A stretch of 64,000 bases of DNA. Origin: an uncultured Parachlamydiaceae bacterium (GTDB lineage Bacteria; Chlamydiota; Chlamydiia; Chlamydiales; Parachlamydiaceae). Below are positions 51,523-52,515 of this stretch, piece by piece. The DNA is taken from NCBI GenBank assembly GCA_963838645.1, contig CAWIRV010000003.1:58578-122577 (forward strand), given 5' to 3'. Position 1 is the stretch's first letter, and every line of letters begins with the position of its first letter. The notes beneath the pieces are model-generated. The model worked only from the letters and a program-made list of their open reading frames with translations, ran no database searches and was not told the DNA's origin. The translations under genes and the position numbers were made by a program.

Positions 51523-52515
51523 ATGATTAACCTTCAAACGCTTATATGTCCAATTACACTTGAAATTATGCAAGATCCAGTTATGGATAAACACGGACAC
51601 TCATTTGAGCGGACAGGAATTACTGAGTGGTTACGTGGACATCGTCAATGTCCATTAGGTGGTGAGGATTTAACTACAGAAGACCTTTTTTCAAATGTGG
51701 TTTTAAAAAATATCACAGCTGAGGCAACCAAATTTAGAGAAGAGCAAGAAGCAAGAGAGGCTGATGAAGCAAAAAACGAAGCTGACGCAAGCACGCGATT
51801 AAAAAATCAGTTGATGGATATACGAAACATGCATCAATTCATTCTTCGTCTATCTCCTGATGATTTAAAGAAGGGTTTCTCAGTGATGATGAAAGAATCT
51901 AATACGACTTTAGAGGATTGTAAGAATCAAGTAAATCAGTGGCGTAATGATCCAGAGGTTGATCCAATGGTTCTTTTCAAGCTTGATCAGACAATAGTTG
52001 GGTTAGAACAGGACGAGAAAATAAACGATCTTCAAAGAAAGGAGCAACGGGATATAGCACGATTACAACGAGTGAATGGGCAGTTGAGAAAGAAGTTAAT
52101 CGAAACGAGCGACACACTGTATAGTATCATTGGTGCAGTAAAAGCAGCTGGAATTATGGCTAGTGGAGTAGGCTTAGGTGCTGGTGTAGCAGGTTTAGGT
52201 GTTCTAACAGGTATTTTTGTGGATCCATCTAATTCGATAGGTTGGGGAGCTATTGTTGGAATGTATGCCGGCTTTGGAGGTCTTTTAGTAGATGACGGGA
52301 GGCATTACAAAAAACCAACGCGTAGCATTTTAGATTGGACCGCAATGTTCTTAGGTACTGTAAAGAGACCTAAAAATAAGGAGAGTAAGCCACAAATAGC
52401 ATCCCAACCTGAAAATGTGGCATCCCAATCTGAAAATAAGGGGAGTAAACCACAAGTGGCATCCCAATCTGAAAATAAGGCGAGCAAGCCACAAGCTCAG
52501 ATGGCCGCCCAGTAA
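51523..52515 (+). CDS. U-box domain protein (putative E3 ubiquitin ligase effector) with a bilobed hydrophobic segment and C-terminal tandem repeats
   Basis: LICPITLEIMQDPVMDKHGHSFERTGITEWL....CPL is the U-box core. Residues ~199-256 form two Gly/Ala-rich hydrophobic lobes separated by DPSNS. The C-terminus has SKPQ(I/V)ASQ(P/S)EN repeats. Confidence 0.8.
   Translation: MINLQTLICPITLEIMQDPVMDKHGHSFERTGITEWLRGHRQCPLGGEDLTTEDLFSNVVLKNITAEATKFREEQEAREADEAKNEADASTRLKNQLMDIRNMHQFILRLSPDDLKKGFSVMMKESNTTLEDCKNQVNQWRNDPEVDPMVLFKLDQTIVGLEQDEKINDLQRKEQRDIARLQRVNGQLRKKLIETSDTLYSIIGAVKAAGIMASGVGLGAGVAGLGVLTGIFVDPSNSIGWGAIVGMYAGFGGLLVDDGRHYKKPTRSILDWTAMFLGTVKRPKNKESKPQIASQPENVASQSENKGSKPQVASQSENKASKPQAQMAAQ

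Follow-up and report, generated by a model that had tools for sequence, protein, structure and literature searches.

Here we describe a gene from an uncultured Parachlamydiaceae bacterium whose product joins a genuine U-box with a putative Inc-like hairpin anchor in one protein, a combination that is rare. The gene lies on a stretch of 64,000 nucleotides, hereafter called the window. In our preferred reading, to which we assign a probability of roughly 0.55, the protein is a U-box E3 ligase that type III secretion delivers to a host-derived membrane, where a transmembrane (TM) hairpin anchors it; the inclusion membrane is the most probable site. The features on which this reading is built are listed below, with positions given in the window.

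51523-52515, + strand: complete gene, 330 codons plus stop (ORF listing)
51510-51515, + strand: Shine-Dalgarno-like AAGAGG, 7 nt before the ATG (read from the sequence)
51535-51732, + strand: U-box domain, residues 5-70 (Pfam, PDB sequence matches, AlphaFold2 with Foldseek)
51733-52116, + strand: all-helical middle domain, residues 71-198 (AlphaFold2)
52126-52221, + strand: hydrophobic lobe 1, Gly/Ala-rich, residues 202-233 (Kyte-Doolittle, Hessa scale)
52222-52236, + strand: DPSNS turn, residues 234-238 (sequence)
52237-52290, + strand: hydrophobic lobe 2, residues 239-256 (Kyte-Doolittle, Hessa scale)
52291-52512, + strand: basic low-complexity tail, residues 257-330, net charge +6 (composition)
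52384-52494, + strand: degenerate tandem repeat of SKPQ[IV]-ASQ[PS]EN[KV] units (Tandem Repeats Finder and reading)

The ORF is genuine and is preceded by a good ribosome-binding site; no start codon earlier than its ATG follows the upstream stop, and the 330-residue translation that the earlier note had quoted for it is confirmed in the ORF listing. It is present in a single copy, without paralogues in the 64-kb window, and a scan of its flanks for promoters and terminators gave no more sites than shuffled sequence. Its GC3 (0.31) and codon usage are near those of neighbouring genes, and no other non-IS gene has a CAI-like value as low as its 0.60; both values are only marginally off the neighbours, so composition is uninformative on a recent foreign origin. 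The gene sits in an IS-rich, lineage-specific insertion adjoining the conserved htpG-phosphoesterase pair and is missing from the syntenic site in all relatives examined, and the IS adjoining it occurs in two 100% identical copies within the window. That the organism is chlamydial, as the earlier note had supposed, was borne out at the family level: HtpG of the window is 75% identical to that of Parachlamydiaceae (63-77% vs chlamydial MAGs), and HtpG, NadE and the phosphoesterase are together 50-77% identical to Parachlamydiaceae MAG proteins. The product has no NCBIfam match, and its Pfam matches are RING/U-box models only; as would be required of an Inc, it comes from a chlamydial genome and is free of conserved prokaryotic housekeeping domains.

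Residues 5-70 form a bona fide U-box, as had been proposed from the sequence, and several independent lines of evidence agree on this point. The suggested check with the Pfam U-box model (PF04564) gave 42.3 bits against a cut-off of 21.4 (E 8.7e-11; residues 7-63, profile positions 5-62 of 73), covering the core LICPITLEIMQDPVMDKHGHSFERTGITEWL (residues 7-37) and the HRQCPL motif (residues 40-45). In a phmmer search of PDB sequences, the plant ligases PUB12/13/14 showed the highest likeness among solved U-boxes (E~3e-11, ~40% identity), and U-box 1 of LubX was also matched (E 6e-7). The AlphaFold2 model (pLDDT 64-86 in the U-box) retrieved the U-boxes of GmPUB13, CHIP, LubX and E4B with Foldseek, at a TM-score of ~0.7 when normalised to the target. 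Ile11 is aligned to Ile39 in LubX and to the CPI motif in PUBs, and the E2-contact residues Ile11, Trp36 and Pro44 are all present, the latter two being kept also in the homologue P0004 described below; GobX depends for its activity on the counterparts of the Ile and the Trp (PMC5770618). The only Cys residues in the protein are C9 and C43, so a RING zinc-ligand set is lacking, and the model shows a cross-brace fold of the RING kind in which the eight Cys/His zinc ligands are missing. A LubX-type tandem U-box effector was considered and rejected: such a protein needs two U-box stretches, as are found in most of the nearest database relatives, and the query and P0004 each have one. Membership in NEX1b was likewise rejected, since the leucine-rich repeats (LRRs) that follow the N-terminal RING/U-box in that family are absent; no LRR family was found in the protein at E<=1, and LRRs occur in just one of its 148 nearest U-box relatives.

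The U-box is followed by a middle domain that is all-helical in the AlphaFold2 model, in which helices span residues 59-98, 100-109, 112-125, 130-141 and 148-213 (pLDDT 70-88); modelled alone, the domain reached a pLDDT of 77.8. No Pfam family was found in it, and a structural search with the domain alone gave no match at E<1. Its likeness to the corresponding part of P0004 goes beyond composition (z 6.9, 0 of 2000 shuffles).

The hydrophobic block comprises 55 residues (32 + 5 + 18; 26% Gly), and outside its two lobes no stretch of the protein is Kyte-Doolittle-positive. The earlier description of two Gly/Ala-rich lobes split by DPSNS stands, except that the first lobe begins at 52126 and the start given before (52117) was 9 nt early. 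Lobe 1, which contains a GxGxGxG run at residues 215-221, has a Kyte-Doolittle 19-residue mean of up to 1.87, a summed Hessa energy of +2.1 kcal/mol for its best 19-mer (-0.1 kcal/mol for its best 12-residue window) and 37% Gly, and the corresponding figures for lobe 2 are a mean of 1.47, +3.1 kcal/mol and 32% Gly. The best window of 12-17 residues in the block as a whole scores about -0.1 kcal/mol. These lobes are the most Gly-rich hydrophobic segments of the entire window, and their 19-mers lie at +2 to +3 kcal/mol, vs -2.5 to +2.6 kcal/mol for the housekeeping TM helices in the window. In the AlphaFold2 model the lobes are in part coil, and their pLDDT stays under 50.

The earlier note likened this block to an Inc hairpin, and in geometry the likeness holds. 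We used the published definition of two segments of 15-32 residues, with a loop of <30 residues and 40-60 residues overall; in known Incs the helices measure 15-32 residues, the loops 3-22 and the whole 40-60, and Pro, Asn and Ser are enriched in the loops (PMC3048545). By hydropathy the block has this geometry, with the qualification that its lobes are Gly-rich, of marginal insertion energy and of low model confidence. It is atypical for an Inc in being C-proximal and 26% Gly, with marginal hydrophobicity and pLDDT <50, and many Incs predicted in silico fail to localise to the inclusion membrane (PMC3048545). Its moderate hydrophobicity falls in the "intermediate hydrophobicity niche" that secreted TM effectors occupy (PMC6110835). 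No sequence likeness to any Inc family was found in Pfam or NCBIfam. Readings of the block as a glycine-zipper, IncA, Bcl-2 or toxin-pore segment were rejected for want of significant Pfam support: residues 188-330 alone gave no glycine-zipper family (Gly-zipper_Omp, Gly-zipper_YMGG, Rick_17kDa_Anti) at E<=10, P0067 (GCA_044869735.1) touches Gly-zipper_YMGG at E 2.5 only, and touches on Bcl-2 and the TcdA/TcdB pore regions were weak and non-significant.

The tail is mostly coil in the AlphaFold2 model (pLDDT 33-40). The tandem repeats reported in it are real, although their period is 39 bp and not ~42 bp: Tandem Repeats Finder returned 2.0 copies with 92% matches at 52417-52495, and a further degenerate copy can be read by eye from 52384, which makes about 2-3 copies overall. 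Residues 288-324 (52384-52494) read SKPQIASQPEN-V-ASQSENKG-SKPQVASQSENKA-SKPQ and contain three SKPQ and three ASQxEN sub-units.

A single full-length homologue, P0004 (320 aa, 31% identity), matches the query in the order of its parts, with a U-box first, then a helical middle domain and then a Gly/Ala hydrophobic block. The middle and hydrophobic parts are more alike than composition-preserving shuffles, and the fusion of U-box and hydrophobic block that had been read from the sequence thus recurs in a distant protein; because P0004 keeps the architecture, we argue that the fusion is functional. When 5.8 billion proteins were searched by word index, first with the query and afterwards with a profile built from it and P0004, the matches were the query, P0004 and three short ones confined to the U-box. 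Exhaustive HMMER against 1.84 billion representatives gave 4821 matches, essentially all U-box-only, and those with two matching stretches, which might have been taken for a U-box with a hairpin, proved to be tandem U-box proteins. Searches of GTDB genomes and of viral contigs with the protein gave no match, and a metagenome scan yielded 80 loci with a U-box, the full architecture being seen in none of them. In these searches the gene was not found in any close relative, and it is missing from every other chlamydial genome or locus that was inspected. With P0004 as the single homologue, a chlamydial family is only a possibility, which is a point against the preferred reading.

Under that reading, the gene product would be a host-directed effector. 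Its N-terminal U-box would recruit host E2~ubiquitin through the Ile11/Trp36/Pro44 groove and act as a RING-type scaffolding E3, and the helical middle domain is a candidate substrate-binding or oligomerisation module. The Gly/Ala-rich block would form a TM helical hairpin. Once the protein had left the bacterium by type III secretion, this hairpin would hold it in a membrane of host origin, most likely that of the inclusion, with the DPSNS turn towards the lumen and the U-box, helical domain and basic repetitive tail towards the host cytosol. The N-terminus (MINLQTLICPITLEIMQDPV) belongs to the U-box, and because the U-box starts at residue 5, any N-terminal type III secretion (T3S) signal would necessarily share residues with the folded domain, which weighs against this account. 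So do several properties of the block, namely lobes with 32-37% Gly and the GxGxGxG run, positive summed insertion energies, partial coil of low confidence in the model and a second lobe of just 18 residues. In addition, some Parachlamydiaceae (Neochlamydia) do not live in a vacuole according to reports, which counts against the inclusion membrane as the destination.

The choice of membrane is where the main alternative departs from the preferred reading. A secreted U-box ligase might use the block to reach a host organelle membrane (ER, Golgi or mitochondria), or as a glycine-zipper oligomerisation or pore-like element, and the U-box-plus-anchor gene might be derived from a eukaryote; we consider this unlikely. 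Precedents exist in LegU1, which resides at the ER with 2 TM segments (PMC12981334), and in GobX, which reaches the Golgi by palmitoylation (PMC5770618). Because diatom proteins also carry a U-box and, near the C-terminus, a double TM segment, the target of the anchor may be a host organelle and not the inclusion, but the diatom segments are rich in Leu/Phe/Val and show no likeness to the query block. The GxGxGxG/GxxxG-rich composition and the non-significant Bcl-2 and TcdA/TcdB touches are typical of insertion hairpins generally, whereas the glycine-zipper variant is opposed by the lack of such Pfam families noted above. This alternative would also agree with plant PUBs being the closest solved U-boxes and with the location of P0004 on a 500 kb contig, but the GC3 and codon usage of the gene are already like those of the host genome. 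As far as is known, moreover, chlamydial TM-hairpin effectors of the type III secretion system (T3SS) enter the inclusion membrane (PMC3048545).

We regard it as improbable that the gene is a lineage-specific orphan that does little or nothing, left over in an IS-rich accessory region from eukaryote-like DNA gained by horizontal transfer, its hydrophobic and repeat parts being incidental low-complexity sequence. Its setting would suit such a remnant, given the lineage-specific segment, the duplicated IS beside it, its absence from the syntenic site of all relatives, its lowest CAI-like value and the recovery of only itself and one homologue among billions of proteins; drift is said to contribute to such gene pools (Domman et al., PMC4209131). 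Against this stand an intact 330-codon ORF with a Shine-Dalgarno sequence, a U-box that retains all E2-contact and core residues, and a three-part architecture kept at 31% identity in P0004, with the parts outside the U-box above shuffles. Very improbable, in our view, is a non-secreted protein of the bacterial inner membrane, whose RING-like domain would serve a bacterial process or act as an SP-RING SUMO ligase. The hairpin could enter a bacterial membrane, the Pfam zf-Nse (SP-RING) model scored above its cut-off (34.9 vs 27), and MMS21 and NSE2 are among the weak PDB matches (E 0.004-0.08). However, zf-Nse also cross-matches 143 of the 148 closest U-box proteins and is therefore generic to U-boxes, the four SP-RING zinc ligands are absent in a protein with C9 and C43 only, and the U-box is both the top-scoring model and the best structural match; the SUMO-ligase assignment was accordingly rejected. 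To our knowledge, bacteria have no E2~ubiquitin partners for such a domain. The hairpin is also less hydrophobic than the housekeeping TM helices of the window, as expected for SRP-avoiding proteins (PMC6110835).

The interest of the preferred reading lies in what it would add to chlamydial biology. Chlamydial Incs are mostly adaptors and their biochemistry is obscure, and the chlamydial interference with ubiquitin known so far is the work of deubiquitinases and of soluble proteins of the F-box, BTB or U-box type. Legionella uses various membrane tethers for the same end (SidC via PI4P, GobX via palmitate and LegU1 via TM segments). If the reading is correct, a chlamydia would write ubiquitin marks at the surface of its own vacuole through a U-box ligase set in a membrane hairpin. 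The protein would also be a compact model of how secreted TM effectors with low hydrophobicity (Gly-rich helices) escape insertion into the bacterial membrane, within the practical limits of an uncultured organism and a nearly unique gene. A bolder proposal, which we offer tentatively and with more doubt than confidence, is that this is the first Inc-type protein with intrinsic E3 ligase activity, a hairpin-anchored U-box that would make the cytosolic face of the vacuole a ubiquitination platform, where for example other effectors, or host factors of defence or trafficking, could be tagged. With P0004 it would form a small two-member family with an unrecognised helical substrate-binding domain.

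Among known systems, LubX/LegU2 of Legionella pneumophila is comparable as a bacterial, eukaryote-like U-box E3, and the query U-box model matches its U-box 1 structures (4wz0, 4wz3). LubX is a soluble Dot/Icm (type IVB) substrate with two U-boxes, of which the second binds the substrate, whereas the query combines a single U-box with a helical domain and a hydrophobic hairpin in a chlamydia that uses a T3SS. The predicted anchoring resembles that of GobX and LegU1, in which ubiquitin-ligase modules are tethered to a host membrane: GobX is a Legionella U-box ligase brought to the Golgi by S-palmitoylation (PMC5770618), with Ile/Trp E2-contact residues that the query has as Ile11 and Trp36, and LegU1 is an F-box E3 component (PMC12981334). 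The anchor of GobX is a lipid, LegU1 is an F-box adaptor and not a U-box protein, and both are type IV substrates, unlike the query in its T3SS setting; exhaustive HMMER found no sequence relationship of either to the query outside the U-box. Plant PUBs carry ARM repeats and lack the helical middle domain of the query. The diatom "SAM and U-box domain-containing" proteins, which have the U-box and C-terminal double hydrophobic segment in common with the query, differ in having two U-boxes, in their unrelated TM segments and in lacking the helical middle domain; because they share this architecture, U-box plus hairpin alone does not prove an Inc.

Closer in taxonomy is the NEX1b family of Neochlamydia, which has an N-terminal RING/U-box followed by LRRs (PMC4209131). 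Parachlamydiaceae secrete F-box, BTB and U-box proteins, the first 20 codons of which act as T3S signals, and a 2014 survey recorded no chlamydial RING/U-box protein outside NEX1b (PMC4209131). NEX1b shares with the query its Parachlamydiaceae origin, a RING/U-box at the extreme N-terminus and a place in the pool of putative ubiquitination-related T3S effectors, but it is an expanded, LRR-bearing family, and the query is a single-copy gene with a helical domain and hairpin instead. Among Incs, CT618 ([213-236]6[242-262]) and CT135/GarD ([210-236]6[242-268]) offer C-proximal hairpins in proteins of ~270-360 aa, beginning at about residue 210 (202-256 of 330 in the query) and with turns of 5-6 residues of the Pro/Asn/Ser type, like DPSNS. 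CT058 and CPn0034 are Incs with an enzymatic macro domain and provide a parallel for an attached soluble eukaryote-like domain. The query differs from these Incs in the much higher Gly content of its block and in that the attached domain is a U-box; a full-text literature search returned no report of a U-box Inc.

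The open reading frame proposed in the earlier note (51523–52515, forward strand) stands as claimed: it holds 330 codons, begins at the first start codon past the upstream stop, and carries AAGAGG 7 nt ahead of its ATG. The U-box peptide that the note had quoted was located at residues 7–37 and 40–45, and the two Gly/Ala-rich hydrophobic stretches it had described, with DPSNS between them, are present:

52126–52221, forward strand: hydrophobic lobe 1 (residues 202–233)
52237–52290, forward strand: hydrophobic lobe 2 (residues 239–256)

The tandem repeat ascribed to the tail also exists, with a period of 39 bp (2.0 copies, 92% matches, 52417–52495) in place of the proposed ~42 bp; one more degenerate copy begins at 52384. 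No paralogue of the gene was found within the 64-kb window.

The U-box is genuine, and the protein belongs to the U-box domain family; the initial assignment was borne out by Pfam (42.3 bits against a 21.4-bit cut-off), and the fold is virtually certain. The closest solved structures are the plant PUB12, PUB13 and PUB14 U-boxes (E~3e-11, ~40% identity), after which Legionella LubX ranks (E 6e-7). In the AlphaFold2 model, the U-box region (pLDDT 64–86) superposes on the U-boxes of GmPUB13, CHIP and E4B and on U-box 1 of LubX (TM ~0.7, target-normalised). With only two cysteines in the protein, the domain is a U-box rather than a zinc RING. Ile11 aligns with Ile39 of LubX, and Trp36 and Pro44 are retained both here and in P0004, a database homologue; GobX activity needs residues equivalent to this Ile and Trp (PMC5770618), and the protein is predicted, with good probability, to be an active E3.

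Residues 71–198 are confidently all-helical in AlphaFold2 (pLDDT 70–88; 77.8 when modelled alone), with neither a Pfam family nor a structural analogue at E<1. The hydrophobic block that follows is 55 residues long (32 + 5 + 18), within the ranges that Dehoux et al. report for experimentally localised inclusion-membrane (Inc) proteins (helices of 15–32 residues, loops of 3–22, total 40–60), and its DPSNS turn is of the Pro/Asn/Ser type enriched in Incs (PMC3048545). Inc hairpins usually lie at residues ~30–90, and an enzymatic macro domain is found in some predicted Incs (PMC3048545); the C-proximal layout seen here recurs in CT618 (hairpin [213–236]6[242–262], 266 aa) and CT135 ([210–236]6[242–268], 360 aa). 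By in silico criteria, the protein is a putative Inc. The block is unusual. Gly accounts for 26% of it overall and 32–37% of its best 19-mers, and for ≤21% of the other hydrophobic segments of the window. On the summed Hessa scale, applied in a position-independent form that gives approximate values, the lobes come to +2.1 and +3.1 kcal/mol and housekeeping TM helices in the window, such as those of a P-type ATPase, to −2.5 to +2.6 kcal/mol; the best 12–17-residue window of the block, at about −0.1 kcal/mol, falls inside the 'intermediate hydrophobicity niche' (−1.5 to +0.5) by which TM effectors destined for secretion evade SRP (PMC6110835). AlphaFold2 is unconfident over the block (pLDDT <50). 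Glycine-zipper, IncA, Bcl-2 and toxin-pore readings of it were rejected, there being no significant family match in Pfam.

The adjacent HtpG is 63–77% identical to proteins of Parachlamydiaceae, Protochlamydia and Parachlamydiales MAGs and ~40% identical to those of Firmicutes, a pattern shared by NadE and a purple-acid-type phosphoesterase. The htpG–phosphoesterase pair is kept in eleven relatives, gene content past it differs throughout, and the window lacks homologues of the genes that lie downstream of the pair in the relatives. Here, the segment specific to this lineage consists of the U-box gene, a 272-aa ORF with a hydrophobic segment at its N-terminus, an ORF of 341 aa, an ATP-dependent DNA ligase and an IS:

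47747–51182, reverse strand: block of the DNA ligase (531 aa), the overlapping 341-aa ORF (no Pfam match) and the 272-aa ORF
1828–2799 and 46689–47660, inverted: IS with DDE_Tnp_1_3 transposase, two 972-nt arms, 100% complementary
7022–8011, 16486–17160 and 33146–34585: transposase ORFs (DDE_Tnp_1, DDE_5 and IS66 family)

Like the U-box gene, the ligase block is absent beside htpG–phosphoesterase in all Parachlamydiaceae relatives examined. The identical inverted IS copies imply recent transposition, and 3.9 kb separates the second of them from the U-box gene. For an obligate intracellular bacterium, the window has a very high IS content. GC3 of the U-box gene (0.31) is inside the local range, and among non-IS genes it has the lowest codon-adaptation value (0.60), though by a small margin; given these values and its lineage-specific, IS-rich setting, the gene is accessory and not obviously recent.

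Between the U-box gene and the divergently oriented 272-aa ORF, the intergenic region contains a unique long palindrome (51193–51231; 18-bp stem in a terminator scan, ~27 pairs in an RNA fold, z = −3.15 for the surrounding intergenic fold), which could serve as an operator or a bidirectional terminator, or be the scar of a mobile element. Elsewhere, a giant 3262-aa ORF (17912–27700, reverse strand) has DUF3638 as its sole Pfam match (residues 2144–2353, 91.7 bits) and is a possible large effector; just downstream of it, 15761–16938 and 17212–17785 hold near-identical direct duplications, made up of segments of 230 and 202 nt that recur at a spacing of ~710 nt and of a tandem duplication of 287 nt (99% identity). 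Small ORFs at 4303–4776 (reverse), 36662–37066 (forward) and 42515–42850 (forward) contain long (>50-residue) or multiple hydrophobic blocks, and could encode more Inc-like proteins or ordinary small membrane proteins.

A word-indexed search of 5.8 billion proteins recovered the query protein alone, and of the 4821 matches from an exhaustive HMMER search of 1.84 billion representatives, nearly all were U-box-only, many of these with tandem U-boxes. The one full-length homologue, P0004 (320 aa; NCBI/ENA; 500-kb contig), is 31% identical across residues 2–184, likewise has its U-box at the extreme N-terminus, and continues with a conserved ET...I(I/A)GA.K.AG..A.GV.LG motif and a Gly/Ala-rich hydrophobic block. 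Neither a profile of the two proteins nor GTDB, viral and metagenome scans yielded a further member. The similarity to P0004 exceeds 2000 composition-preserving shuffles in the middle domain (z 6.9) as well as in the hydrophobic region (z 5.6), and we consider it improbable that this thinly distributed gene is an accessory orphan without function. The same parts occur in a second design, P0067, in which the Gly-rich bilobed block is N-terminal and two U-boxes come after it:

L101 9139–11491 (GCA_044869735.1, JBIOXR010000086.1, bacterial MAG contig): P0067 region

P0067 adjoins ORFs of 141 aa (weak MYND-finger match) and 119 aa (C-terminal TM segment), apparently as part of a small cluster of putative effectors with eukaryote-like features. 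The nearby order L25-Pth-S6-S18-L9-IspE presumably corresponds to C. trachomatis CT799–CT804. A metagenome contig, Ga0181520_10005224 (L034 9941–11503, GC 0.37), encodes a 521-aa protein with a U-box (74.7 bits) and an OTU cysteine protease (48 bits), by its domains a ligase–deubiquitinase fusion; the contig is densely coding and looks bacterial.

We favor, at a probability of roughly 0.55 for the entire chain of steps, a secreted, membrane-anchored U-box effector, with the inclusion membrane as its putative site. The U-box would bind host E2~Ub, the helical middle domain would pick substrates or drive oligomerisation, and the hairpin would be the anchor in a host-derived membrane, leaving both termini host-cytosolic. 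Secretion is putative but probable, and has a precedent among Parachlamydiaceae proteins whose N-terminal domain is an F-box, a BTB or a RING/U-box: their first 20 codons act as T3S signals in Shigella (PMC4209131). That the protein is non-secreted or of SUMO type is very improbable, and its zf-Nse (SP-RING) match is a generic cross-match: of the 148 U-box proteins nearest to it, 143 show it too. That the hairpin is a membrane anchor is predicted with slightly less assurance than secretion, and the inclusion membrane specifically, which would be the default target of a T3SS-delivered hairpin protein in a chlamydia, is a tentative, putative location. These step-by-step estimates are judgements, not measurements. 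A U-box with a double TM segment is not unique to chlamydiae, because diatom proteins such as the Seminavis 'SAM and U-box domain-containing protein 1' combine U-boxes with a C-terminal double TM segment; P0016, P0095, P0107, P0111, P0122 and P0123, from diatoms or other marine eukaryotes, have one or two U-boxes and a 40–50-residue C-terminal double hydrophobic segment, a eukaryotic parallel to the present design. Anchoring of the ligase in another host membrane, or acquisition of the entire gene from a eukaryote, appears unlikely.

Membership in NEX1b, the Neochlamydia RING/U-box and LRR family, is ruled out by the lack of LRRs; as of 2014, no other chlamydial RING/U-box protein was known (PMC4209131). 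A full-text search of the literature, itself incompletely covered, gave no report of a U-box Inc. The membrane-anchored effector proposed here is neat and testable for specialists rather than astonishing. As proposed, its mode of action would parallel that of Legionella ligase effectors tethered to membranes, by palmitate in GobX, two TM segments in LegU1 and PI4P in SidC, and it may be likened to other bacterial U-box mimics, such as LubX and NleG.
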